Part shown: positions 8,739-54,134 of the stretch, piece after piece
Position numbering within the stretch: the stretch's first letter is position 1
Layout: every line of letters begins with the position of its first letter
NCBI GenBank assembly: GCA_026387355.1
Contig: JAPLLW010000008.1
Coordinates: 1,016-65,015 of the forward strand
Direction of reading: 5' to 3'
Length of the DNA: 64,000 nucleotides
Source of the DNA: Candidatus Omnitrophota bacterium
Lineage (GTDB): Bacteria; Omnitrophota; Gorgyraeia; Gygaellales; Profunditerraquicolaceae
Notes under the pieces: generated by a model
Database searches by the model: none
The model's input: the letters and a program-made list of their open reading frames with translations, nothing else
Told to the model about the DNA's origin: nothing
Program-made: the position numbers and the translations under genes

Positions 8739-9906
8739 GACGTCTAGAGAAAGATCATTTTATTCGACCAAGTCGTCATGGTTTAAGAGCGCTCTTAAAA
8801 ACTTATATTTTTCCCTAAGAAGCTTGACTCTAACGCTTGTATTCCGAACCAGAAAGGCAGCAATTATCAGACAGGAGGATGTTCTTTCAATTGTAGTTAT
8901 TAGAATCGACAGGATAGGGGATCTGGTGGTTTCTTTTCCGGCGATCAAGGCCTTAAAAGAGATCTTTCCGCGCAGCCGCCTTGCGGTTATGGTTAGGCCT
9001 CAGCTAATGCCTCTCTTAAAGAATACACCCTGGATTGATGAGCGTATATCCTATAACGGTTTCTTGAATTCGATTGCAATTTTGCGTAGGAAGCATTTTT
9101 ACCTCGCAGTAGATTTGTTAATCGACTATCCGCTTAAGACTGCCTGGCTTTGTTTTTTTAGTGGGGCAAGATTAAGATTAGGTTTTGATATAGCCGGTAG
9201 GGGGAGATTGTTTAATCTCAGTCTGCGTCCAAGCCGCAAGGAGCAGAGACTTGGTGAACATACCCTAGAATTAGTTAAGTTCTTGGGAAGTGTTTTAGGT
9301 GTGTCTCAAGAGAAAATTCCTACTTCGGATTCGTGTATCTTGTTTTCTCGGGAAGATAAAGAATTTGCCGAAGAGTTTTTACGTGTTCGGGGGATAAAAA
9401 GTGATGACTTGATAATTGGCATACATCCGGGTGGGCAATTTCCTAGCCAGCATTGGATATTAGGCCGGTTTGCTGCATTAGCCGATGAAATTTACCAAAA
9501 ACATAGGGCAAAGATATTAATCTTGGGAAATTCCAACGAAAAAGAGCTGGTTGACAAGCTCAGTTCATTAATGAAGATAAAGCCAATTTTAACTGTAGGT
9601 CTTTCTTTGAATAAACTCGCCGCAATTATCGCACATTTTGATATACTGGTTTGTAATAATTCAGGGTTGTTGCATATTGCAGCCGCCTTAGAAATACCGA
9701 CTGTATCGACGATGGGTCCGACGCACCCGCAACTCTGGTCACCTAAAGGAGATAACCATATCGTACTAAGAAAAGAATTAGCCTGTAGCCCTTGTAACAG
9801 GCCTGTATGCGCCAGGCATGATTGCATGAAGTTAATTACTGTAGATGAAGTTTTGAGTGGGGTTGAGAACCAGATAAGTAAAATAGAAAATGCTAAAGTC
9901 AGTTAA
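8722..9906 (+). CDS. Glycosyltransferase family 9 (heptosyltransferase-like)
   Basis: 'ILSIVVIRIDRIGDLVVSFPAIKALKEIFP' N-terminus and 'LVCNNSGLLHIAAALEIPTVSTMGPTHP' C-terminus are typical of the RfaF/RfaC/WaaQ family. Confidence 0.7.
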   Translation: MIDQNKTSRERSFYSTKSSWFKSALKNLYFSLRSLTLTLVFRTRKAAIIRQEDVLSIVVIRIDRIGDLVVSFPAIKALKEIFPRSRLAVMVRPQLMPLLKNTPWIDERISYNGFLNSIAILRRKHFYLAVDLLIDYPLKTAWLCFFSGARLRLGFDIAGRGRLFNLSLRPSRKEQRLGEHTLELVKFLGSVLGVSQEKIPTSDSCILFSREDKEFAEEFLRVRGIKSDDLIIGIHPGGQFPSQHWILGRFAALADEIYQKHRAKILILGNSNEKELVDKLSSLMKIKPILTVGLSLNKLAAIIAHFDILVCNNSGLLHIAAALEIPTVSTMGPTHPQLWSPKGDNHIVLRKELACSPCNRPVCARHDCMKLITVDEVLSGVENQISKIENAKVS

Positions 9907-12051: not shown

Positions 12052-13072
12052 ATGAAAGATGTATACAAGAAGATTCTGATAATTAATCTCGGCAGTATCG
12101 GCGATATACTTTTATCTACTCCGGCTTTAGGAGGAATGAAAACATGTTTTTCCGGATCTCAAATCTCCATGTTGGCTATAAAGAGAGCCCATTTTTTGAC
12201 AAGGGGCTTGCTTTATATAGAAAAATGCTCATTTTTTTGTACGGGGGGTTAGAAATTTCTTAAAAGATTTAAAGACGCTGCTAGGATTAAGAAAATAATC
12301 TTATGATTTAGCAGTGAATATGCGCACTCTTGTTTCATGATGGGGAGCTCAGAAGATTAGGCTGTTTTTAGCTATAATTAATCCGTACCTTAAGGCAAAA
12401 AGTAATGCTAGCGCAAGAGGTAGTTTCTTTGATATAAACATAAAATAGAGTGATATGGGTGATAAATACGAGATGGAGTATGGTATAGAAATTGTAGAAG
12501 CAATCGGAGCGGAGGTTAGAGATAAGAAAATAGATTTGTTTGTAAATAGCCTTGAAGCCCGTAAGATCGATCAAATTCTTGAGCAAGAAGGCTTAGCTAA
12601 AAGCGATACGCTTGTCGGTATACATCCGGGGGGGGCAATTTCCAAGCCAGCGTTGGATATTAGAGAGGGTTGCTGAATTAGCCGGTAAGATTGCTCAAAA
12701 ACATAAGGTAAAAATATTGATTTTGGGGCATTCTAGCATAAAGACCTGGCTGATAAGATTGTTGCATTAATGAAGATAAAGCCAATTTTAGCCTTAGGTA
12801 TTTCTTAAAATAGGCTTGTTGCGATTATCGCACATTTTGATATACTGGTTTGTAATAATTCAGGGCCTTTGCATATTGCTGCGAGCTTTAGGATGCCTAT
12901 AGTATCGACGATGGGGCCGACGCATCCTTATCTCTGGCTGCCTATGGAGGATAACTATATTGTGCTTAGGAAAGGACTTTCTTGCAGCTCTTGCAGCAGG
13001 CCTGTTTGTCACAGACATAAATGTATGGAGTTAATTTCGACAGATGAAGTCTTACAGGTGGTTGAAATTTAA
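12052..13072 (+). pseudogene. Degenerate duplicate of the GT9 heptosyltransferase gene at 8722..9906 (frameshifts and stops)
   Basis: Three short ORFs (12052-12252, 12455-12676, 12869-13072) each align to successive parts of the 8722..9906 product, e.g. 'PIVSTMGPTHPYLWLPMEDNYIVLRKGLSCSSCSRPVCHRHKCMELISTDEVL' versus 'PTVSTMGPTHPQLWSPKGDNHIVLRKELACSPCNRPVCARHDCMKLITVDEVL'. Nucleotide stretch 12769-12890 closely matches 9570-9690. An in-frame TAA and indels interrupt the reading frame. Confidence 0.75.
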
Positions 13073-15333: not shown

Positions 15334-16233
15334 ATGCTAAAATATCTTATTGAAGACTATAATAATTATGACTATATTCTGCATAACGGGCAATACAGAG
15401 TCACTCTTTTTGTTTTCGAAAAGAATAATTATTACCCTCAGTATCTATTAAAGATATATTCCCAAGAGAATGCAGGTAATTTGAAGCAGTTACAGGGATT
15501 GTTGCAAAAAATAAACCTGTACAGTTTGGCGATACTTAAGGATTCTGTTCCAAAGCTGTTAAATTTACAGGAGTTCGGTAAATCGTGTGTAATTAAGGAA
15601 GAGTATGTTCAGGGGATACTTCTGGCAAGGTATGCCGAAGGAAGAGGGCTTGTATGGGAAAAGGATTTTTTTCTTAACTTGAGCCTAATTGCTGAATGGT
15701 TGGTTGCTTTGCATAAAAACTTTACTGTGGGAGAAATTTCGTTCAGCAAGGATAAAGTCGCGCTTTTATTGAAAGATACGCAGCAGTTTTTAGATACGGG
15801 ATTTTTAAATTTAAAAGATGGCTTGATAACTATTCCTACGGTAATTTCACATGGTGACCTTATGCCGATGAATGTTATAAGAGTTAAAAACAAAATCTCC
15901 GTTTTAGATTGGGATAAGATGAAAACTGAGGGCTTGCCTTTATGGGACTTGCTTACCTTCATACTTCACTATCTCCATTCGCGCTATCGATTTCAAATAG
16001 AAGGCGTGTATTTGAAGCCAGAAGTTTTCTTAAAGTATTTTAGTTTGATCTACCAGAAAGATAACGCTATATCTAGATTTGTAAAAGAGAGAGTAGGGTA
16101 TTATTGCTCGAGTTTAAAATTGAATGATTCCCAAAGAGATCTTTTAATATTGCTCTGGATTTATGATATGCTTTATCTGTGCGGTGGTAAAACAAACAAT
16201 CCTGTTTCTTTGCCCAGGCTATTAAAACTATAA
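15334..16233 (+). CDS. Kinase-like protein (APH/ChoK fold; paralogue of 10997..12025)
   Basis: 'HGDLMPMNV' catalytic loop and 'VLDWDK'. The ATG at 15334 lies just after the upstream stop at 15330-15332, so it is preferred over the ORF-track start at 15274, which overlaps the previous gene by 59 nt. Confidence 0.5.
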   Translation: MLKYLIEDYNNYDYILHNGQYRVTLFVFEKNNYYPQYLLKIYSQENAGNLKQLQGLLQKINLYSLAILKDSVPKLLNLQEFGKSCVIKEEYVQGILLARYAEGRGLVWEKDFFLNLSLIAEWLVALHKNFTVGEISFSKDKVALLLKDTQQFLDTGFLNLKDGLITIPTVISHGDLMPMNVIRVKNKISVLDWDKMKTEGLPLWDLLTFILHYLHSRYRFQIEGVYLKPEVFLKYFSLIYQKDNAISRFVKERVGYYCSSLKLNDSQRDLLILLWIYDMLYLCGGKTNNPVSLPRLLKL

Positions 16234-43932: not shown

Positions 43933-44532
43933 ATGTCTGAAGTGAATACCCCATTTCCAAAATTAAAACTAACTGTAACCGGTGTATTTGGCGTTTGTTA
44001 TCATGGTTACAAAAATGGTGATGAGATTATCTTAGAGGATTTTACTCATGCCCCTAAACATTTTTGTCTAGGATTAGCGCACGCTTTATTTCCGGTAATC
44101 TACGCTTTAAGTTTTGGCGCTAAATTCGGTTTTCGCGATAACCAGCGTTCACTTTTGGTTACCTGTCCTGATGGAGGAAAATTGGAGTTTCAGGCAGAGA
44201 TCCTGGATAAAAACGGTCAGGTAGAAACTCTAGCCCGCGATCCTAATCATAAGGGCCCTAACCCTAAGAAGATGGTCATTGAGGTAGTGCAGGCAAAGGG
44301 GAAATGTAGTTTTGGCTATAAAGTCGGAGACAAATGGGAGACTACGGGATTAAAATGTATCCCCGGTTTCTGCGGAGCGGCATTTCATACTGCCTTTCCG
44401 GCCTTGTTTGCTTTAAACTTTGGAGCAAAGTTTTTCTTTATGCAAGATCCAAATTCAATCGATACAGTTACCTGTCCCGATGGAGGAAATATAATTTTTA
44501 AAGTAACGCGAGTAGAAGAGGAGAGAAAATAA
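43933..44532 (+). CDS. Tandem-duplicated Cys/His-rich domain protein (two ~95-aa repeats each ending in CPDGG)
   Basis: Half 1 'GVCYHGYKNGDEI...HFCLGLAHALFPVIYALSFGAKFGF...VTCPDGGKLEF'; half 2 'GKCSFGYKVGDKW...GFCGAAFHTAFPALFALNFGAKFFF...VTCPDGGNIIF'. Confidence 0.5.
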   Translation: MSEVNTPFPKLKLTVTGVFGVCYHGYKNGDEIILEDFTHAPKHFCLGLAHALFPVIYALSFGAKFGFRDNQRSLLVTCPDGGKLEFQAEILDKNGQVETLARDPNHKGPNPKKMVIEVVQAKGKCSFGYKVGDKWETTGLKCIPGFCGAAFHTAFPALFALNFGAKFFFMQDPNSIDTVTCPDGGNIIFKVTRVEEERK

Positions 44533-45798
44533 TTGATGAACAAGCGTAGAGTTGTTATTACAGGTATCGGAGTAGTTTCTCCGAATGGCATTGGTAAGGA
44601 GAATTGTTTTAAGGGGATGATTTCTGGAAAGTCTGGGATTAAGCGTGTTGACGGATTTGATGTGGCAATCTTTAATACTAAAATTGCTGCTGAGGTGCGT
44701 GATTTCGATCCTTTTAAATTAGGGCTTAACCATGATGAAGCTATGCGTATGGATAGATATGTTCAGTTTGGCGTGGTCGCAGGAAACATGGCGATTAAAG
44801 ATAGTGGATTAGACCTTTCTAAAGAGGATCCAGAGCGTATCGGAGTATGTCTTGCCAATGCTATTTGCGGGACAAAATACATGGAAGAGGAGTTTGCCCT
44901 AGTTACTGATGATGGGAAGAAACCTATTGATCCAGCTTTAGTGCGGCCGGACCTATATGATGCTGCCATGTTTAATACTCCCTCAATTGAATTAAGCGCT
45001 AAGTATGGTTTCAAAGGCAATTGCAATACGCTTTCAACGGGTTGTACCGCCGGGACAGATTCACTTGGGTTTGGTTTAGAGACAATTCAGGATGGGGAGC
45101 AGGATATAATGATTTGTGGCGCAGCCGAAGCGCCGATTACGCCGATCACCTTTGGCGCGTTTGATGTGGTAAATGTCTTATCAGTAAGAAATGATGAGCC
45201 TGAAAAGGCCTCGCGGCCTTTTGATAATAAACGCGACGGATTTGTTTTATCGGAAGGGGCCGGGATTTTAGTTTTGGAAGAATTAAACCATGCGTTAAAA
45301 CGAAATGCCAGGATTTATTGCGAGGTTTTAGGATTTGGCACTAGCTGCAACGCCTTTCATATGACTGATCTTCCTTCAGATGGAGGGGCAATGGTTAGTT
45401 GTATTTCTCTAGCTTTAAAAGACTCAGGCGTAAGGCCTGAGGAAGTAGATTACATCAGCGCTCATGGATCATCTACGCGCATGAATGATATCTTTGAGAC
45501 AAGCGCTTATAAGACTATATTCGGAGAGTATGCATATAAATTACCGATAAGCTCCTTAAAGTCTATGATTGGCCACCCCTTAGCTGCGGCTAATGCAATA
45601 GAGATGACAGTCTGCTCTATGATTTTTGAAAGGAATATCTTGCCTCCTACCATTAATCAAGAAGAAAAAGATCCTCTTTGCGATTTGCATTATATACCGA
45701 ATAAGGCAATTGATAAAAAGGTAGATATGATTTTGAAAACAAGTAGTGGATTTTCAGGAATTCACTCTTCATTAGTCTTGAGGAGATATAATGGATAA
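44533..45798 (+). CDS. Beta-ketoacyl-ACP synthase (KAS I/II-like ketosynthase, catalytically complete)
   Basis: Cys-His-His triad present: 'LSTGCTAGTDS', 'YISAHGSSTRMND', 'KSMIGHPLAAANAIE'. Confidence 0.9.
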   Translation: MMNKRRVVITGIGVVSPNGIGKENCFKGMISGKSGIKRVDGFDVAIFNTKIAAEVRDFDPFKLGLNHDEAMRMDRYVQFGVVAGNMAIKDSGLDLSKEDPERIGVCLANAICGTKYMEEEFALVTDDGKKPIDPALVRPDLYDAAMFNTPSIELSAKYGFKGNCNTLSTGCTAGTDSLGFGLETIQDGEQDIMICGAAEAPITPITFGAFDVVNVLSVRNDEPEKASRPFDNKRDGFVLSEGAGILVLEELNHALKRNARIYCEVLGFGTSCNAFHMTDLPSDGGAMVSCISLALKDSGVRPEEVDYISAHGSSTRMNDIFETSAYKTIFGEYAYKLPISSLKSMIGHPLAAANAIEMTVCSMIFERNILPPTINQEEKDPLCDLHYIPNKAIDKKVDMILKTSSGFSGIHSSLVLRRYNG

Positions 45799-47032
45799 GA
45801 TAGCTGTAACTGGTATAGGGGTAGTTTCACCGTCCGGGATAGGTAAGCGCCAGCTTTGGGCAAATATCAAAAGCGGCCGTTCATTTATTAAAGAGATCAC
45901 TCGTTTCGATGCCTCTAAATACCCATCGCGCATTGCCGGGCAAATCGATGATTTGGAGAAATATAGCACTATCTCTGAGCGCTTGCTTAAGAAAATCGAC
46001 GCTTTCTCGCATATGGCCTTAATTGCTTCAGAGCTAGCTTTGCAGGATGCTGGAATAGATATTAAAAATGAAGATCCGAGTTTAGTAGGTATATTTCTGG
46101 GAAATGCTATCGGCGGATGGCTTTATGCCGAGACAGAACTGCGCGATATGTATATCGAAGGACGCGAAGGAGTTTCTCCTTATATGGCCTCAGCTTGGTT
46201 TCCGGCTGCGCCACAAGGCCAGGTCTCTATTTATTATGGTATAAAAGGATTCAGTAAGACAGTTGTCGCAGACAGGGCTAGTTCTTTAATGGCGCTAGGT
46301 TATGCCAGAAAAGTTTTAGCTAAAAATAAATTAAATATGATTTTAGGTGGAGGGATGGAAGCCCCAGTTACACCCTATGCGCTTTTATGCTGCAATACTT
46401 ACGGCGCATTATCAAAAGACAATTCTCATCCGCAAGAGGCATACCGGCCGCATGATAAAAAGAGGAATGGTTTTGTAATCGGCGAGGGTTCAGGTATTGT
46501 AGTTATGGAGAGTATTGAACGTGCAAAAAAGCGTCAGGCAAATATTTTAGCTTTAATCTCCGGATATGGCACAACCTGCGATGGGGTAGACCGGATTAAT
46601 TCTGCTAAAGACGGAAAAGAGCTTGCCCGGGCAATAAATATTGCACTTGTTGATGCAAAGGCAAATATCAATGAAATCAATTATATCAGTTTAGATGGAT
46701 TAGCAGTAGATATTTGGGATAATTCTGAAGTGTTGGCTTTAAAAGAAGTCTTTGGTAGCCGCATAAAAGAGATCCCGGTAAGCTGTCCTAAGTCCATGTT
46801 TGGTAATCTGCTCGGTGCTTCCGGGGCATTGGATATGATTATTGCTATACAGGCAATGGAGCACGCTTTAGTTCCTCCGACATTAAATTTAGATGAGCCG
46901 GCATCAAACGGGCTTAATTATATAGGTAAGCAGGCAAAAGAACATACAATCAGAAAAGCTCTGATTATATCACGCGGCAGAGGAGGGATTAATTCTGCGC
47001 TGGTAGTTGAGAAAGGGAGTAACAATGCTTAA
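45791..47032 (+). CDS. Ketosynthase-like partner lacking catalytic residues (chain-length-factor-like)
   Basis: Thiolase-fold homologue of the upstream KS, with the active-site Cys replaced ('TVVADRASS'), the first His absent ('YISLDGLAVD') and the second His replaced by Asn ('KSMFGNLLGASGA'). Its start overlaps the upstream stop (ATGGATAA). Confidence 0.75.
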   Translation: MDKIAVTGIGVVSPSGIGKRQLWANIKSGRSFIKEITRFDASKYPSRIAGQIDDLEKYSTISERLLKKIDAFSHMALIASELALQDAGIDIKNEDPSLVGIFLGNAIGGWLYAETELRDMYIEGREGVSPYMASAWFPAAPQGQVSIYYGIKGFSKTVVADRASSLMALGYARKVLAKNKLNMILGGGMEAPVTPYALLCCNTYGALSKDNSHPQEAYRPHDKKRNGFVIGEGSGIVVMESIERAKKRQANILALISGYGTTCDGVDRINSAKDGKELARAINIALVDAKANINEINYISLDGLAVDIWDNSEVLALKEVFGSRIKEIPVSCPKSMFGNLLGASGALDMIIAIQAMEHALVPPTLNLDEPASNGLNYIGKQAKEHTIRKALIISRGRGGINSALVVEKGSNNA

Positions 47033-47219
47033 GAAAATAGTATGTGCAGCTTCGTTTGTAGTTTTCGTATTGTGCGTTTATTCTTTTTTGGGTGGTAACA
47101 AAGTATTTGAAGGTAAATTTGAGAACGATTATGTTGCTTGGTATTTTCTGGCCAAAGGAATCTTTTGTTCTTTAGCGCTTTATTTATTAGTTTTAATTCT
47201 AGAGAAATTAAAAAAATAA
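47007..47219 (+). CDS. Small two-TM membrane protein (hypothetical)
   Basis: 70-aa hydrophobic ORF between the KS-like gene and the radical SAM gene. Confidence 0.3.
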   Translation: MRKGVTMLKKIVCAASFVVFVLCVYSFLGGNKVFEGKFENDYVAWYFLAKGIFCSLALYLLVLILEKLKK

Positions 47220-47229
47220 GGGAGGGGTA

Positions 47230-48693
47230 ATGAAGATTTTATTTGTTATGCCGAAAGTCGGAGCTTGGGCAACACACGGGATACATAGGTCTCCTAACCA
47301 GCTTTATGCACATTGGGCCTCATACGTTAGGGAGACACGCGGTTACGCAGATGTCGCAGTTATTGACGGTAAAGCTGACCAGCTTTCTATGGATGAGCTG
47401 ATTGAACAGGTAAAAAGCAAAAATCCTGATGTTGTGGTTATGGGAGAGCAGTTGCATGGTTACGGCGGATACGGTGTTTTGCGTCATTTTAAAGACGCAG
47501 CTGTTAGGATTAAGACAGTTTTACCTAAGACAAAGATAGTTTTGGGCGGGCTATGGTATTCTGCAATGCCCGTTCCTACACTCGAAGAGAATCCTGCGGT
47601 TGATTTTGTAGTTATGGGAGAAGAGGAATCATTTGGAGATTTGATTGAGGCGCTCGATAAGAATAAGCCCTTGAAAGACGTGGGTGGAGTTACTTCGCGC
47701 ATTGACGGCCAAATTGTTATGGGGCCACATAAGCCGCTTATGATGGATTTGGATAAGTTACCTCTTCCAGCGTACGATTTATTCCCTATGGATAAATATG
47801 TGGGGCATACTTACTGGAAACCGTTTGTAGATATGGTTACCTCGAGGGGTTGTCCATCTGCTTGCACATTTTGCTATGAATGGGATCAGTTTGATCCACG
47901 CTCACCGTCTGATTTTCTGAAATGGCGCGCGAAGTCTCCGGAGAGAGTTATGGAGGAGTTAAATCTCTTACATAAAAAATACGGGGTAAAGGTTGTGGTT
48001 ATTCAGGATGATAATTTTAATGTTGACCCTAAAAGAGTGCAGAAGTTCTGCGAACTTAAAAAAGCAGCAAATAATCCGATTAAGTGGGTATCTTTAGGTC
48101 GTGCCATTGATTGGGTTAACTGCGAATCAATCCTGCCGCTTATGAAAGAGAATGGTTTGTTTATGGGCGTATTCGGTATTGAGGTCACGACACAGTCGGA
48201 ACTCAAAAAAATCGCTAAAGGTATTACTCTAGACCAGATTAAAAAGACGATTGAGATCCTGCGCAGAAATGATATCGCGATTGTCGCAGATATTATGATG
48301 GGTTTTGATTATGATACCGAAGAGATCATTAAGCAGCGTTTTGAGTTTACTGATCAAGTGGACCCGGATATTTTGTGGGTGGGATACGTTACCCCTGCTC
48401 CGAATTCACCGATGTGGAGAATTGCTTTAAAGAAAAACTGGATTGATCCTAAGAAGGTAGATTTTAGCACATGGGATTTTCTACATCCGGTAATTCCCAC
48501 GGATCATTTAACTACTGAAGATTTAGGTAGGCTTGGTTCATGGTGTATGCGTGAGTTTTTCTCAAAACCCGGAAGAATCAACCGGATTATGGAGAGTGAT
48601 TTTGACCCGCTTGCAAAACTTTGTTTCCAGGATGTTATGAACGGTATTAATAAGTGGGAAGCAGCCGCGACTAAGGGAGAAGTGCAGATATAG
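47230..48693 (+). CDS. B12-binding-domain radical SAM protein (class B rSAM)
   Basis: N-terminal B12-binding-like region 'KILFVMPKV...VVVMGEQLHG', then the radical SAM cluster 'VTSRGCPSACTFC' (CxxxCxxC). Confidence 0.75.
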   Translation: MKILFVMPKVGAWATHGIHRSPNQLYAHWASYVRETRGYADVAVIDGKADQLSMDELIEQVKSKNPDVVVMGEQLHGYGGYGVLRHFKDAAVRIKTVLPKTKIVLGGLWYSAMPVPTLEENPAVDFVVMGEEESFGDLIEALDKNKPLKDVGGVTSRIDGQIVMGPHKPLMMDLDKLPLPAYDLFPMDKYVGHTYWKPFVDMVTSRGCPSACTFCYEWDQFDPRSPSDFLKWRAKSPERVMEELNLLHKKYGVKVVVIQDDNFNVDPKRVQKFCELKKAANNPIKWVSLGRAIDWVNCESILPLMKENGLFMGVFGIEVTTQSELKKIAKGITLDQIKKTIEILRRNDIAIVADIMMGFDYDTEEIIKQRFEFTDQVDPDILWVGYVTPAPNSPMWRIALKKNWIDPKKVDFSTWDFLHPVIPTDHLTTEDLGRLGSWCMREFFSKPGRINRIMESDFDPLAKLCFQDVMNGINKWEAAATKGEVQI

Positions 48694-48771
48694 ATTTTGC
48701 GGGTCCTGGCACGGGAGGCGCTTCTCGCGCTAAAACGCGCTTCGAAACATCCCCGTGCCACCCGTAAAATT
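48692..48771. repeat. Structured intergenic element (about 80 nt, nested hairpins); shares a 30-nt core with 49846..49895
   Basis: 'ttttgcgggtcc tggcacggg agg cgcttctcgcgc ... cccgtgcca cccgtaaaa': a 9-bp outer stem (ttttgcggg / cccgtaaaa with one G-U), a 9-bp inner stem (tggcacggg / cccgtgcca), and the GC hairpin ggcgc-ttctc-gcgc. Confidence 0.55.
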
Positions 48772-48812
48772 ATTTATTATTAATTGTTATTTATATTGCA
48801 GCAGGAGGGTTT

Positions 48813-49049
48813 ATGGATACAAAATCAAAAGTAAGAGACGTATTAGTAAATTTATTAAAAGTAAAGCCAGATGAATTAAAGGATGATTTGACTCTGCAGG
48901 AGAGTATTGGGGTTGATTCTACTGAGATGGTAGAGTCAGTGATTGCTTTAGAAAAATCGTTCGGGGTAAAGCTTAGCCCGAAGGAGATTACCAAGAATTC
49001 AACAGTTAATGATATTGCTAACAATATCCAATCAAAATTAGCCAAATGA
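48813..49049 (+). CDS. Acyl carrier protein
   Basis: 78 aa; 'LTLQESIGVDSTEMVESVIALEKSFGV' carries the DSxE phosphopantetheine-attachment motif; RBS 'ggaggg'. Confidence 0.8.
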   Translation: MDTKSKVRDVLVNLLKVKPDELKDDLTLQESIGVDSTEMVESVIALEKSFGVKLSPKEITKNSTVNDIANNIQSKLAK

Positions 49050-49843
49050 AGATAGTTGATTTAAGTCTACCGATTGACGAAAAAGCCTTTGAAGTGCATA
49101 AGGTTGATATCGAGCGGGTAACTCATAAAGCCGGTGTTGAGAAATTTAACCGCGTAATTATGGGTAAGACTTTAATCGGTAAAATCAAATACCTTTTGGG
49201 TCAGCGCATAATTAAGCCTCAAGATTTACCGGATGAGGAATTCCTCTCGCTTGAAATCGTGCATTCTCCGGTACATATCGGTACCCACCTGGATTATTCA
49301 TTCCATTACGGTTCAAAATCAGAAGGCCGCGCCTCTAAGACTGCAGATGAGATTCCTTTAGATTGGTGCTATTCTGACGGAGTAAAACTGGATTTATCTC
49401 ATAAGAAACCTAATGAAACGATAAAGGCGCTTGATTTAGCAGAAGCGCTTAAGAAGATAAATTATTTGCTTAAAGCAAATGATATTGTGTTGATCCGTAC
49501 TGGTGCAGATGAATTATACGGCGGACCAAAATATTTTATGGATTACCCCGGGATTGATACATCGTCTATAGATTTTCTTCTGGATAAAGGAATTAAAATA
49601 TTTGGCGTGGATACCATGGGAATTGACCGACCATACCGTTTTATGCTTAAAGAATTTATGGATACAAAAGATATAAAATGTTTTTACCCTGCGCATTTCT
49701 ACGGCAGGAAGCGTGAATTTATTCATATTGAGCGTTTAGCCAATTTAGAGAAATTGCCGGATTATGGATTTAAGGTAATCTGTTTCCCGATTAGAATAAA
49801 GAATACAGGTGCTGCCTGGGCAAGGGTTGTAGCATTATTATAG
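49046..49843 (+). CDS. Cyclase-family protein (kynurenine-formamidase-like metal-dependent hydrolase/cyclase fold)
   Basis: 'HSPVHIGTHLDYSFHYG' HxGTHxDxPxH signature. Confidence 0.7.
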   Translation: MKIVDLSLPIDEKAFEVHKVDIERVTHKAGVEKFNRVIMGKTLIGKIKYLLGQRIIKPQDLPDEEFLSLEIVHSPVHIGTHLDYSFHYGSKSEGRASKTADEIPLDWCYSDGVKLDLSHKKPNETIKALDLAEALKKINYLLKANDIVLIRTGADELYGGPKYFMDYPGIDTSSIDFLLDKGIKIFGVDTMGIDRPYRFMLKEFMDTKDIKCFYPAHFYGRKREFIHIERLANLEKLPDYGFKVICFPIRIKNTGAAWARVVALL

Positions 49844-49845
49844 AA

Positions 49846-49895
49846 TTTTTACTGGTCCTGGCACGGGCGCTTCTCGCGCCAAGCCCCGCAAAGTT
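49846..49895. repeat. Second copy (partial, rearranged) of the structured intergenic element
   Basis: 'ggtcctggcacggg-cgcttctcgcgcc' core is identical to 48702-48730 apart from a 3-nt indel. Its 3' flank 'ccccgcaaag' is the reverse complement of the other copy's 5' flank 'ttttgcgggt'. A GC hairpin ggcgc-ttctc-gcgcc is present. Confidence 0.5.
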
Positions 49896-49913
49896 AGATA
49901 AAAGGAGAATGTT

Positions 49914-50357
49914 ATGGCTGGACATACTTGTAATTCGATTGTTATCAATGCGCCTTATGAGAAGATCTTTGATATTTCAAATGATATTACTCGTTGGACA
50001 GAATTATTCGGCACGGAGTATAAGAAGGCAGAAGTAGTAAAAAAAGAGGCAAACAAAATCACTTTCCGTCTTACGGATGAGGATGACAAGAGCTGGCAGT
50101 CCTGGCGCCTGCTTTTTAAAGATAAATATTTTGCCTATGCCGAACGCGAAGAGCCGAAATTTCCTTTTAAGTATATGAAGATCGTCTGGCTTTATACCCC
50201 TAAGCCCGAAGGCATCGAAATGACCTGGATTCAGCACTTTGAAATGGAAAAAGATTTTAAGTTCAATGACCAGCAGATTGAAGGTTTTATTAATGAAGGC
50301 TCTAAAGAAAACCTTAAGATCTTTAAGCGGATTATTGAAAAAGAAGCTGCTAAGTGA
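49914..50357 (+). CDS. SRPBCC-superfamily protein (polyketide cyclase/dehydrase-like, Polyketide_cyc2 type)
   Basis: 147 aa; 'SIVINAPYEKIFDISNDITRWTELF' START/Bet v1-like N-terminus typical of the TcmN/SnoaL-adjacent cyclase family. Confidence 0.5.
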   Translation: MAGHTCNSIVINAPYEKIFDISNDITRWTELFGTEYKKAEVVKKEANKITFRLTDEDDKSWQSWRLLFKDKYFAYAEREEPKFPFKYMKIVWLYTPKPEGIEMTWIQHFEMEKDFKFNDQQIEGFINEGSKENLKIFKRIIEKEAAK

Positions 50358-51481
50358 AGAAGTCGACTTTTGTTATTTTATGTCTGGAAGGCGCGGTTTT
50401 ATCTTTTAACGTTGCCGCCGCAGCTGCTTTAATACCTTCAATCGCACAAGATTTTGCTCTTTCTCAATTTCTGGTTGGTAATATTGTATGGCTATATATG
50501 ATCCCTTATGGACTGGCTGCGTTTTTCTACGGTCCTCTGATTAGGGCTTTTGACGCAAGGCGCGTAGAATTAATCTGCATGTTTTTGTTTTCCGTAGCAA
50601 ATCTAGTTGCCGGTTTGTCACATAATATTACAACTTTATTTATTGCGCGATTTTTAATGGGGTTATTCGGGGCATCAGTTATACCGCTGGGGTTAATCTT
50701 AATCGGCCAGCGCATATCTCAGGATAGGCGTGGTCGTTTTATCGGAGTATTTTTTAGCACTACCTTTGTTGCGTCTTTGGCGGGACTATTCTTAAGTGGG
50801 ATAATCTCTTGGCGTTTGATTTTCTTGATCCCGGCGGCCCTAGGGTTTCTTCTTTGGGTAGGCATGTATTTTTATCTCCCAAGCTTTAAGGAAGAAAACA
50901 GGATCTTTCGCATGGATTATATTTTGGCTTTTAAGAATAAGAATGTCGTACGCATATTTACCTATATTCTTTTTATCAGCCTTATTTATCATGGTATACA
51001 GCAGTGGTTGGGGGTCTATTTCTCAACCCAGTTAAATTTAAGTCAGTTTATGATCAGTATGCTTATAACATTAACTAGCTTAAGCGGGATTGTGGGAGAG
51101 GTCTGGGGGGGAAGCCTTGCGGATTCGCTAGGTAGACAAAGAGTAGTTAATATAGGTATTATTGCCATGATTGTTTGTATCGGTATCTTAATATTAAAAT
51201 TACCTTTAGCCATTATAGCTTTAGCGATGATTATTTGGGGGTTGGGTTGGACCTTTAACCACGTGGGGTTAGCGACTATGCTTACTGATCTACCGAAAGA
51301 ATTATTAAATGAGGCAGCGAGCTTAAATAGCGGAGTGCGTTTTCTTGCGGGTGGCATAGGAGTTAGTCTGGGTGGTTTGATTATGCATAAGAGTTTTAGT
51401 CTCGGGTTTATTATTTTCGGAAGCGCGTTAACCATGCTTTTATTATCAGGTAAATTAATTAATATAAAAAATAGGGGGTAA
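50354..51481 (+). CDS. MFS transporter
   Basis: 12 TM helices; 'GPLIRAFDARR' MFS loop 2-3-like motif. Confidence 0.75.
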   Translation: MKKSTFVILCLEGAVLSFNVAAAAALIPSIAQDFALSQFLVGNIVWLYMIPYGLAAFFYGPLIRAFDARRVELICMFLFSVANLVAGLSHNITTLFIARFLMGLFGASVIPLGLILIGQRISQDRRGRFIGVFFSTTFVASLAGLFLSGIISWRLIFLIPAALGFLLWVGMYFYLPSFKEENRIFRMDYILAFKNKNVVRIFTYILFISLIYHGIQQWLGVYFSTQLNLSQFMISMLITLTSLSGIVGEVWGGSLADSLGRQRVVNIGIIAMIVCIGILILKLPLAIIALAMIIWGLGWTFNHVGLATMLTDLPKELLNEAASLNSGVRFLAGGIGVSLGGLIMHKSFSLGFIIFGSALTMLLLSGKLINIKNRG

Positions 51482-51483
51482 CT

Positions 51484-52260
51484 ATGAACCAGGACTTAAA
51501 AGGTAAAGTTGCGATTCTAACAGGAGCTAGTCGAGGTATTGGTAAGGCACTTGCTTGCACAGCTGCAGGCTTAGGGATCAACTTAACTCTTGCTGCGCGC
51601 GGAGAGGGTCCCTTGAAGGAGACAGCTGATGAGATTGCCAAGAAATATAAAGTTCAGGTTTTACCTGTTTCTTGCGATGTTACAAAGTTAGAAGATTTGG
51701 AGAATCTGGTGAATAAGACAAAAGAAAAATACGGTAAAATTGATATTCTGATTAATTGCGCAGGTGTATCCAGTCAGTTTCCTTTTCAGTTGCAGCCGAT
51801 AGAGGATTTTGAGAGATTGGCGTATACCAATTATCTAGGTTATGTGCGGCTTATCCGTTTAGTGATCAATGATATGATCGAGCAGAAATACGGGGCAATT
51901 ATAAATATAGTCTCAGGTTCCACCCTGGTCGACCCTGTTCCGAGAAACTTTATTGTTTATAGCTCTTTAAAGGTAGGGTTACGTGCTTTTTCTAAGGGGC
52001 TCTTCTGGGAATTACGCGATCATGGGATTAAAGTAACTTCAATATTGCCGGGGGTAACAGATACTGATCTTACCGGGAAGTTGAAAGATATCACTAATGA
52101 TACATCGCGTTTAATGAGTACTCAGGCAATCGAAGATGCGGTTAAGTTTGCTTTGACCGTGCCGCAGAATGTCTGCCCGCTTGAGATTTCTGTAATCAAT
52201 CAGCAAACGCCATGGACTGCGCCGGTTATACCATTTAAACAAGCGCACCCGGGTAAATAA
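51484..52260 (+). CDS. Short-chain dehydrogenase/reductase (SDR; ketoreductase-like)
   Basis: 'TGASRGIGKALA' and 'NCAG' motifs; catalytic 'YSSLK'. Confidence 0.85.
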   Translation: MNQDLKGKVAILTGASRGIGKALACTAAGLGINLTLAARGEGPLKETADEIAKKYKVQVLPVSCDVTKLEDLENLVNKTKEKYGKIDILINCAGVSSQFPFQLQPIEDFERLAYTNYLGYVRLIRLVINDMIEQKYGAIINIVSGSTLVDPVPRNFIVYSSLKVGLRAFSKGLFWELRDHGIKVTSILPGVTDTDLTGKLKDITNDTSRLMSTQAIEDAVKFALTVPQNVCPLEISVINQQTPWTAPVIPFKQAHPGK

Positions 52261-52280
52261 AACAACGGGAAAGTTAAGAA

Positions 52281-52676
52281 ATGATGCAAGAAAATGATTT
52301 AAAGAACTTGAAAAAACGCTATCTTATCTGGTTTTACAAAGTCAGTAAAGAGGCTTTGGATAAAATTGAGCGTAAATTCTCGCAGGTTGATATCGACCGC
52401 TTTATCTTAAAAAAGCTGAAGAGATCAGATAAGCATGAAGCCATAGAATTTTTTATCGCGCAGTTTTCTGATTATATCGAGAAAAAAGAACAGGATGGCT
52501 TGAATCTCAAGTTCGAAAATAAAAAGTTAAAACCGGAGTATTTATTCTTGGTTTTGAAATTACAGGCGATTGAGAAGGCGATAGTAAAAGAGTTGGGAAA
52601 GAAAGCTCTTGTTGAGATTAAGCGGCTTTATGAGACAGAGATGACTGAGCGCATTTTAAGGAGCACAGAACACTAA
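52281..52676 (+). CDS. Hypothetical protein
   Basis: 131-aa Lys/Glu-rich ORF, co-directional within the cluster. Confidence 0.3.
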   Translation: MMQENDLKNLKKRYLIWFYKVSKEALDKIERKFSQVDIDRFILKKLKRSDKHEAIEFFIAQFSDYIEKKEQDGLNLKFENKKLKPEYLFLVLKLQAIEKAIVKELGKKALVEIKRLYETEMTERILRSTEH

Positions 52677-53582
52677 ATGTTAGTTGATAGCCACTCACAT
52701 TGGTTACCAGAGGCAATAATCAGCAATGCCCATTTTTATCATAAAGGTTGGGGGGATATTGAGGCTCAACTAAAGATGATGGATGAAGCGGGTATTGATA
52801 AGGCAGTCTTATCTTATCCGACTTCGGATGCGCATCTAAAATTAGGAAGTATCTCAGAAGTCGTACGTATTTTTAACGACCATGTGGCAAGGGTTTTAAA
52901 GAAATATCCGGAGAGATTTATCGGCGCAGCAATTCTACCGATTGATCATGAGCAGGATATGATTAAAGAATTTAAACGCGCAACCGAAGAGCTAGGTTTT
53001 AAGGCAATTTCATTAGCTACAAGTTATAACGGGGTTTACCTAGACGACGCTAGATTCCTTAATATTTATAAATTAGCCCAAGATGAGAATATTCCTATCT
53101 TTGTGCATTCGCAAATTGTAAAACCTATTGGTATTGAACGAGTGGAAGATCCGTTACTTACCCCAGTGATCGAGTATGTTTTTGATACGACTATATGCAT
53201 CGGTAAGCTTTTAATGTCGGATATTCTGCGCGATTATCAGGCGAAGTTTATCTTTGGTTATTTTGGAGGTGTGACTCCGTTTTTAGCAAATCGCTTTGAC
53301 ACAACCTATGCAATGTTGCGGGGGGTGAATTTTGTTAAGGATTTAAAAGGTAATCCTACAGATTTCTTAAAGAATATTTATGTTGATACTAGCGGAGATA
53401 AAACTAAGGCCAATTTTGCTGCGGCTTTAGAGCTGGTTGGGCCAAAACATATTCTATGGGGGAGCGACTATCCGGCAAAGAAAGATACCTCCTCAGGCAT
53501 TCAGGCAATTAAAGAATTAGGTATATCAGTAGATGATAAGAATAATATTTTGGGAGGCAATTTAGAAAGGATGCTAAAATGA
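52677..53582 (+). CDS. Amidohydrolase-2 family (TIM-barrel metal-dependent hydrolase/decarboxylase)
   Basis: 'MLVDSHSHWLP' N-terminal HxH; 'FVHS'; 'WGSDYP' C-terminal Asp motif. Confidence 0.65.
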   Translation: MLVDSHSHWLPEAIISNAHFYHKGWGDIEAQLKMMDEAGIDKAVLSYPTSDAHLKLGSISEVVRIFNDHVARVLKKYPERFIGAAILPIDHEQDMIKEFKRATEELGFKAISLATSYNGVYLDDARFLNIYKLAQDENIPIFVHSQIVKPIGIERVEDPLLTPVIEYVFDTTICIGKLLMSDILRDYQAKFIFGYFGGVTPFLANRFDTTYAMLRGVNFVKDLKGNPTDFLKNIYVDTSGDKTKANFAAALELVGPKHILWGSDYPAKKDTSSGIQAIKELGISVDDKNNILGGNLERMLK

Positions 53583-54046
53583 AGCTGGAAATTACGGTTT
53601 TAACTTTATTTTTAGCGGTATTTTATATGAATCTATTAACTGCTGAGCCAATGCCCGAGGCAATTGCAGTAAATGATCAGACAAAGGAGTGCGCAGTATT
53701 TTTTCTAGGTGATGAATGCACGGATTGTAGTGTACCAGAGGGGTGGAGGCAGACAGGCTATTCTAATCAGTCTGATTGCCCGGATGGATATAAGAAGATT
53801 GATACTGTTGAATCAGTATGCACCCCGAGAAAAACAGCTTTTTGTTGTTCAGAAAATCATTCCGGGACTAATGGTAATTGCCGGGATTTAGTTATTAATG
53901 AAACAAGTAAAGAATGCGCTTTTTTAGAAGATGTAAATAGTTGTTTAAGTTTGTCGCAAGGATGGAAAACAGGAGACTTGTGTCCGGGTAATTTTCAGTG
54001 GCAACAGGATCCCCTTGATTGTGGAACAAGAAGTAAACAAAATTAA
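53579..54046 (+). CDS. Secreted Cys-rich protein with an internal repeat
   Basis: Signal peptide; 12 Cys residues; two repeats '[ST]KECA...C...GW(R/K)(Q)TG...CP(D)G(Y/N)(K/F)'. Confidence 0.45.
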   Translation: MKLEITVLTLFLAVFYMNLLTAEPMPEAIAVNDQTKECAVFFLGDECTDCSVPEGWRQTGYSNQSDCPDGYKKIDTVESVCTPRKTAFCCSENHSGTNGNCRDLVINETSKECAFLEDVNSCLSLSQGWKTGDLCPGNFQWQQDPLDCGTRSKQN

Positions 54047-54134
54047 TGTATTTATAGCGGGTGGCTGCTGATATGGGATGGATCAGCAGACAGGACCCGC
54101 TAAGAAAAGAATAAAAATAAAAAGGAGAAATAAG

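Follow-up and report, generated by a model that had tools for sequence, protein, structure and literature searches.

We examine here a GC-rich hairpin element that recurs in the spacers of a type II polyketide synthase (PKS)-like operon of Candidatus Omnitrophota, together with the wider family to which its copies belong. The window, that is, the whole stretch of DNA analysed, comprises 64,000 nucleotides (assembly GCA_026387355.1, contig JAPLLW010000008.1, positions 1,016 to 65,015), and the Omnitrophota operon occupies its positions 43933-54046. Three copies of the element lie within the operon or directly after it, and it is likely, in our judgement, that they are members of a dispersed family resembling repetitive extragenic palindromic (REP) sequences, and not a regulator built for the pair of acyl carrier protein (ACP) and cyclase genes that two of them flank. 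The features of the region are the following, R1 being a covariance model of the family that was built for searches.

47230-48693, + strand: B12-binding radical S-adenosylmethionine (SAM) gene (Pfam PF04055, PF02310), whose stop codon abuts copy 1
48694-48770, + strand: copy 1, an intact family member, 77-nt imperfect palindrome (fold; model R1)
48771-48812, + strand: remainder of the first spacer, an AT-rich tail with the ribosome-binding site of the ACP gene, AGGAGGG
48813-49049, + strand: ACP gene (Pfam PF00550; list of open reading frames, ORFs)
49046-49843, + strand: cyclase gene (Pfam PF04199; ORF list)
49846-49893, + strand: copy 2, degenerate and internally deleted (shared 14-mer and 13-mer; R1 alignment; fold)
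49914-50357, + strand: SRPBCC polyketide-cyclase-like gene, 3′ of copy 2 (Pfam PF03364, PF10604)
53579-54046: last gene of the operon, with a TAA stop codon; copy 3 starts 8 nt further on
54054-54103, - strand: copy 3, a short intact member, TTAGCGGGTCCTGTCTGCTGATCC...GATCAGCAGCCACCCGCTAT (R1 35 bits, E 2e-6; fold -23.8 kcal/mol)

Copy 1 begins 1 nt past the TAG stop codon of the radical SAM gene, in the 119-nt spacer between this gene and the ACP gene (spacer 1). It folds at -38.3 kcal/mol (z -4.7), a stability reached by none of 200 shuffled sequences, and scores 67.6 bits against R1 (E 2e-14). The outer stem (ATTTTGCGGGT/ACCCGTAAAAT) and the middle stem (GGCACGGG/CCCGTGCC) pair just as the initial annotation, made from the sequence alone, had proposed, and a CCT bulge is located at 48705-48707. 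The apical hairpin described there, ggcgc-ttctc-gcgc, has to be replaced by GCGC-UAAAAC-GCGC in the minimum-energy structure; the former hairpin can form in copy 2 only. On the 3′ side, copy 1 is followed by AAAAUUAUUU, with no U-tract after the stem. A promoter and terminator consensus scan, whose overall counts matched those obtained with shuffled sequence, placed no terminator at copy 1 or copy 2, and its sole call at the elements was a weak promoter-like match (9 of 12) within copy 1. Local GC content reaches 0.62 at the elements, compared with about 0.39 across the window.

Copy 2 begins 3 nt past the TAG stop codon of the cyclase gene, in the 70-nt spacer ahead of the SRPBCC gene (spacer 2), so that copies 1 and 2 flank the ACP and cyclase genes (48813-49843), which overlap by 4 nt. 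The GC-rich repeat initially noticed on the two sides of this pair is real: GGTCCTGGCACGGG occurs exactly twice in the 64 kb (48702 and 49854), where 0.03 occurrences are expected, and GGCGCTTCTCGCGC is present at 48717 and 49866. The two copies have 14 + 13 exact bases in common, and their likeness reaches back to the stop codons (TATAGA-TTTT...). The proposed shared core of about 30 nt stands: it measures 29 nt in copy 1 but, owing to a 3-nt indel between the blocks, 26 nt in copy 2. On the + strand, copy 2 folds no better than shuffled sequence (z +0.5 when the spacer is folded, -0.28 when the element is). Its score against R1 is 11.1 bits (E 1.7). In the R1 alignment, copy 2 retains its 5′ half, which equals that of copy 1 except for the 3-nt indel, as well as its 3′ end, GCCA(agc)CCCGCAAA, but has lost its interior together with the middle stem's 3′ arm; with both ends preserved in this way, copy 2 represents an internally deleted relic. 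A comparable relic, likewise with an internal deletion, occurs in spacer 1 of the orthologous locus L024. The idea that the other outer arm of copy 2 is inverted was rejected, as a single base accounts for the difference. Family members have either A-U or G-C at this covarying position, where copy 1 has a G.U pair and copy 2 the mismatch A.C, and nothing is inverted. The sequence that follows copy 2 on its 3′ side, AAAGUUAGAU, contains no U-tract.

Copy 3, which the initial annotation did not mention, is situated after the last operon gene and upstream of the next + strand gene. Searching the 64-kb window with R1, filters off, revealed no copies besides these three. From the gene layout, all three elements are almost certainly transcribed with the gene array. 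Two further public assemblies of the same strain contain copies 1 and 2 in identical sequence and therefore offer no variation to use.

The family consists of GC-rich imperfect palindromes of 46-90 nt that are dispersed in Candidatus Omnitrophota genomes. On the 5′ side, its frame comprises an A/T-rich outer stem, CGGGT, a 3-nt CCT bulge, and G-N-C; it then passes through a variable, covarying inner stem and an apical hairpin to G-C-C-ACCCG and the complement of the outer stem on the 3′ side. Its structure was tested on an alignment of 27 diverse members (A4), in which 94.1% of cells are paired versus 78.4% in column shuffles, and 15 of the 22 pairs are altered on both sides in a compensatory manner; in a control with the partner columns slid, pairing reached only 29-52%. 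Together, pairing and covariation support a single long hairpin. The GGGT/ACCC pairs, the 3-nt CCT bulge, and the G-C and C-G pairs that come next are invariant in A4. Mispairs of the G.U type on the element strand are about as frequent as A.C mispairs, which correspond to G.U on the other strand (30 vs 26), and the counts are 6 vs 7 relative to the mRNA strand, where few cases could be mapped. This balance is a poor fit to selection on a single RNA strand and fits a DNA palindrome or young copies. In most copies, the 5′ flank is rich in T and the 3′ flank rich in A (TTTTAGCGGG...CCCGCTAAAA), the usual 3′ flank being CUAAAA or CAAAA.

In Rfam 15, no match was obtained for the window region (E <= 10) or for five loci with canonical copies (E <= 1), the only real matches in the scanned loci, to an FMN riboswitch and a tRNA, lying in another part of L112. 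With no Rfam match and no excess of G.U over A.C, the reading of the elements as a dedicated cis-regulatory RNA, one of those first offered, finds no support. A literature search on palindromic, REP, or transposase-associated repeats of Omnitrophota and on the motif strings found no paper describing the family.

Some members are more elaborate. A second palindrome, GCCTGCCTGCCGGCAGGCAGGC, is nested in the apical loop at L027:10752-10839 and 15584-15671, L123:1096-1183, L135:5025-5112, and L162:393-480, and longer composites of 136-171 nt are found at L004:16392-16527, L052:9208-9378, and L053:19869-20029. The family architecture is a mosaic, as in bacterial interspersed mosaic elements (BIMEs).

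The distribution of the family was explored by scanning a metagenome contig collection with the pattern of its commonest subfamily (CGGGTCCTGTCTTGG...CCAAGCCACCCG). The pattern was present in at least 120 metagenome contigs, and approximately 100 of the matches listed do not belong to this operon but lie next to genes such as tgt/queA, cysS, tmk/holB, tpiA/secG, trxB (thioredoxin reductase), glutaredoxin, and peroxiredoxin. Because the family sits between so many unrelated genes, it is not an ACP-cyclase-specific regulator. Generic spread had been named in advance as the outcome that would speak against regulation specific to the cluster, and such spread is what is seen at the level of the family; among the readings first put forward, it is the REP-like repeat that these sites between housekeeping genes, along with the many orthologous operons that lack the element, bear out. 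With a simple gene caller, 91 sites could be classified, of which 85 are flanked by tandem genes and 3 each by convergent and by divergent genes, in contigs where 629 of 688 gene pairs are co-directional anyway. Relative to the genes, 53 elements have the same orientation and 32 the opposite one (38% antisense). In the median, an element starts 9 nt past the upstream stop codon and ends 54 nt ahead of the next start codon. Two subfamily patterns gave no match in viral contigs.

More than 1,400 close relatives were found for the cyclase, those with names being Candidatus Omnitrophota/Omnitrophica, and 80 orthologous loci from species-representative genomes served as the comparison set. The gene order radical SAM-ACP-cyclase-SRPBCC is fixed in all 80 genomes, with cyclases 62-88% identical and radical SAM proteins up to 96%. 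The spacers are far more variable: the one between the radical SAM and ACP genes ranges from 0 to 930 nt, and the one between the cyclase and SRPBCC genes from 4 to 1079 nt. Each spacer is reduced to 25 nt or less, sufficient for a ribosome-binding site only, in 18 orthologs, and 7 orthologs have two such short spacers, which indicates that the element is dispensable to the operon. Hairpins related to copy 1 occur in about 25 orthologs, at spacer 1, spacer 2, or the operon end, and a comparison of spacers showed that the ATATTAAT-like tail of spacer 1 recurs in filled spacers of orthologs.

The same two spacers also accommodate repeats of other kinds. Unrelated palindrome families, exemplified by GGGACGGTTCT...AGAACCGTCCC and GGGACTGTCCCC...GGGGACTGTCCC, were noted at L011:9669-9764, L026:9513-9626, L038, L049:9659-9764, and L071:9683-9746, as well as in L028, L058:9721-9764, L074, and L082. 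AT-rich tandem repeats are present in spacer 1 of L040 and in L057 and L081. Repeats in general seem prone to land at these two operon junctions.

Relationships among copies were assessed on 39 elements. The mean identity of the inner core is 0.76 for different sites within a genome versus 0.66 for the same site across genomes, whereas the outermost stem shows the reverse (0.55 within a genome vs 0.70 at the same site across genomes). The greater likeness of inner cores within a genome points to spread or homogenisation inside the genome. In L017, two copies are 100% identical over 71 nt, and in L027 the apical loops at two sites contain one and the same nested insertion. On this basis, the sites would be old and inherited, and gene conversion anchored on the conserved motifs, transposition, and/or repeated replacement would make their interiors uniform inside each genome. 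Gene conversion was long ago proposed for REP evolution (Higgins et al. 1988, as cited in PMC12306157). Elements would settle in co-directional spacers, typically no more than about 10 nt past a stop codon and in either orientation, and would be gained, lost, and internally deleted over time, copy 2 being one such deletion relic.

REP sequences are short (20-40 bp) imperfect palindromes with an unpaired GTAG or CGTC tag (PMC3733652, PMC2817692), located mostly downstream of ORFs and between unidirectional, or also convergent, genes (PMC3733652). Like the REP sequences and BIMEs of Enterobacteria and Pseudomonas, the Omnitrophota family consists of imperfect, GC-rich palindromes interrupted by a bulge or mismatch, which occupy many dispersed intergenic sites, mostly just 3′ of ORFs, between co-directional genes and in both orientations; its members are polymorphic among relatives and closer to one another within a genome. 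The dispersed intergenic copies typical of REP sequences are thus found here as well (at least 120 contigs, 85 of 91 sites tandem, median 9 nt past the stop codon). The expected effects on mRNA are also the same, namely a barrier to 3′ exonucleases and, for elements less than 16 nt from a stop codon, ribosome stalling (PMC12306157). Unlike REP sequences, members of the family are 46-90 nt long (77 nt in copy 1), two to three times the usual 20-40 nt, and the alignments A4 and A5 contain no GTAG/CGTC tag, showing instead paired T/A-rich flanks followed by (A/G)CGGGT. Moreover, the conserved part is enclosed by a variable outer stem, and no flanking gene for a REP-associated tyrosine transposase (RAYT) was found in 2 Mb of loci.

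REPINs comprise two inverted REPs with a spacer, form a long hairpin, and are mobilised by a single-copy RAYT (PMC3116915). The family resembles them in its long hairpin of about 70 nt with two imperfectly complementary arms and a variable apical spacer (PMC3116915), in forming a within-genome population with a dominant 'master' sequence, and in its long vertical persistence at orthologous sites. Unlike REPINs, its arms (CGGGTCCTGTCTTGGGTATTTTC and the imperfect complement) are neither self-complementary nor short palindromes, only whole hairpins or deletion relics were seen and no REP singlets, and the RAYT-like genes of Omnitrophota carry other repeats, such as GTAGACCTACGCGGTCTAC.

With respect to miniature inverted-repeat transposable elements (MITEs), the flanks of the family are inverted, that is, mutually complementary, and not direct repeats, and filled and empty sites show no duplication. 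Correia/NEMIS elements of Neisseria and ERIC/IRU elements of enterobacteria are MITE-like imperfect palindromes of 70-150 nt near gene ends, which are co-transcribed in operon mRNAs, form long hairpins, and display presence/absence polymorphism and internally deleted variants, as the present family does. Correia elements have a TA duplication, whereas no terminal inverted repeat bounded by a target-site duplication is seen in the family. To our knowledge, there is no related full-length insertion sequence. The family behaves like REP, REPIN, and MITE-like repeats, yet lacks defining features of each. We file it among dispersed intergenic palindromic repeats; it is a new family within this known kind.

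The 2 Mb of loci were searched for transposases by tblastn, with RAYT and IS200 TnpA queries and then with Omnitrophota RAYTs. Five RAYT-like genes (Pfam PF01797) were recovered, which score 61-81 bits against NCBIfam NF047646 (REP-associated tyrosine transposase), only that of L110 reaching the 80-bit cut-off. Three of them (L029:3409-4092, L027:9236-9904, and L053:9275-9952; NF047646 61-63 bits) are inserted precisely at the junction of the ACP and cyclase genes, two genes that in most genomes overlap. The RAYT-like gene of L029 has its own GTAG-type REPs, GTAGACCTACGCGGTCTAC, alongside, with a further copy at about L029:13200-13330. The genes of L121 and L110, outside the operon, have their own repeats too, namely GACACCCGACGGGTGTC at 1063-1095 and 1765-1795 in L121, and GGAAACAGTTTCC at 1166-1215 and 1735-1775 in L110. 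As these genes each come with a repeat type of their own, several REP-RAYT systems coexist in the phylum; as all five bear other repeats, no enzyme can be assigned to the CGGGTCCTG family studied here. Between inverted element pairs (L168, L144, and L149), the ORFs encode flavodoxin-like, TPR, and secreted proteins and no transposase.

Several observations weigh against reading the window copies as ordinary members of a dispersed, mobile family. All three fall within about 4 of the 25 spacers of at least 40 nt in the window. In the 80 orthologous loci, 28 matches fall within the operon, 3 just beyond its end, and none in the remaining 0.5 Mb of flanking sequence. Contigs of the PKS-like operon make up 17 among the 120 metagenome matches listed (14%), and overall the operon shows a several-fold enrichment of the family. 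Its density is about 1 per 25-45 kb as an estimate from fragments. The exact variant of the window was not found outside this strain: the core TCCTGGCACGG..GCGCTTCTCGC had no match in the genome and metagenome contig collections, which do not include the strain. None of the five RAYT-like genes in the 2 Mb of loci is flanked by the CGGGTCCTG family, and a comparison of filled with empty sites revealed no target-site duplication. Finally, the filled sites of spacers 1 and 2 have flanking tails in common across a clade, and the elements in them look orthologous across it, their pairing kept by compensatory changes, which would also fit functional selection. As for the enrichment, we consider it more probable that the operon acts as a general 'landing pad', for instance through its available spacers or level of expression, than that the element has a dedicated function there.

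The alternative that draws most directly on these points is a functional motif kept by the host: a nuclease, helicase, nucleoid protein, or RNA-binding protein would specifically bind the stop-proximal hairpin, with its CCT bulge and GGGT/ACCC frame, and mRNA 3′ ends, stability, or translational coupling within operons would be set in this way, with the present operon as a preferred client. Strong conservation of an asymmetric motif while the stems covary, the tight placement behind stop codons, persistence at orthologous sites across the clade, and the several-fold enrichment all agree with such a role. We nevertheless hold it to be unlikely, given that both orientations are common (53:32), that G.U and A.C mispairs are equal, that many orthologous operons are entirely without the element, that decayed copies such as copy 2 and that in spacer 1 of L024 are tolerated, and that unrelated palindrome families fill the same spacers in other genomes. 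Regulation confined to the cluster, in which copies 1 and 2, as an attenuator/terminator pair or a cis-regulatory RNA, would adjust the stoichiometry of ACP and cyclase to that of the other operon products, can point to the fact that both copies flank exactly this gene pair in the same orientation as the genes, to the very stable hairpin of copy 1, and again to the enrichment in the operon. This possibility is very improbable and has already been largely refuted by the distribution of the family, most of which lies outside the operon; in addition, the spacers are empty in 18 orthologs each and together in 7, the structure of copy 2 is lost, neither copy has a U-tract after its stems or was flagged as a terminator, Rfam offers no match, and 38% of the family runs antisense to the flanking genes.

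It could also be argued that the elements are ordinary bidirectional or 'I-shaped' intrinsic terminators that only look alike, as they are GC-rich hairpins directly after stop codons, and a spacer-2 subtype does have the order A-tract, hairpin, T-tract (AAAACGGG...CCCGTTTT). Only an exceedingly slim probability attaches to this explanation: the T-rich 5′ and A-rich 3′ flanks of most copies are the reverse of a terminator, the scan and the absent U-tracts of copies 1 and 2 offer no sign of one, sites lie inside the conserved operons tpiA-secG, tmk-holB, and radical SAM-ACP, and independent terminators would not have an 11-nt and an 8-nt motif and a fixed bulge in common. Recombination sites similar to integron attC, with the ACP-cyclase pair as a mobile cassette, would likewise appear as imperfect palindromes of 50-90 nt after ORFs with extrahelical bases and a variable apical part, and GTTAGAT after copy 2 fits GTTRRRY. 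That motif is a pattern expected about once in 1000 and accompanies one copy only, while the elements sit between housekeeping genes; this reading is vanishingly improbable and was rejected on the family consensus, which has no RYYYAAC/GTTRRRY core sites, and on the fixed order of the four genes in 80 genomes.

Membership in a dispersed REP-like family, the reading that we prefer, is compatible with effects on expression. E. coli REP hairpins shield upstream mRNA from 3′ exonucleases, according to PMC12306157, which also reports, citing Liang, Rudd and Deutscher 2015, that a REP less than 16 nt from a stop codon stalls the terminating ribosome and lowers expression of the upstream gene. By analogy, the hairpin of copy 1 would protect the upstream mRNA from 3′-exonucleases and/or slow ribosomes at the stop codon, probably as a side effect. 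With copy 1 at 1 nt and copy 3 at 8 nt from the preceding stop codon, such effects are plausible for the radical SAM gene and the last operon gene, and any effect on ACP:cyclase expression is probably a by-product. In view of the several-fold enrichment in the operon, a secondary, co-opted effect on expression may nonetheless exist. A more far-reaching scenario, which we regard as rather unlikely, is that of a domesticated element, a bulged hairpin that would be read by a dedicated Omnitrophota protein via GGGT-CCT-G / C-ACCC, be subject to gene conversion, and tune operon expression, with the PKS-like operon as a client at three sites, or that would be moved by a class of enzyme not yet linked to such repeats.

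Besides the genes listed above, the operon contains a gene for a DUF-like 199-aa protein, two ketosynthase-like genes, MFS, SDR, and amidohydrolase genes, and two unknowns. Within the gap of about 200 nt that separates the radical SAM gene from the second ketosynthase-like gene, a 70-aa ORF (47007-47219) encodes a hydrophobic, membrane-like product and may be a genuine small gene of the operon. Elsewhere in the window, positions 9429-9840 and 12629-13039 form a direct repeat of about 414 nt (families D1/D2 of a repeat scan), 76-78% identical and spaced 3.2 kb, which probably stems from paralogous genes.

For the cluster itself, these results caution that its hairpins should be read neither as dedicated regulators of a polyketide-type pathway nor as cassette borders. 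More broadly, they describe a structurally well-defined family of intergenic palindromes in an uncultured phylum, for which we found neither an Rfam entry nor a paper. The family may serve as a marker for binning Omnitrophota contigs, and it provides a natural test case for the spread of REP-like repeats and their effects on operons outside Proteobacteria.

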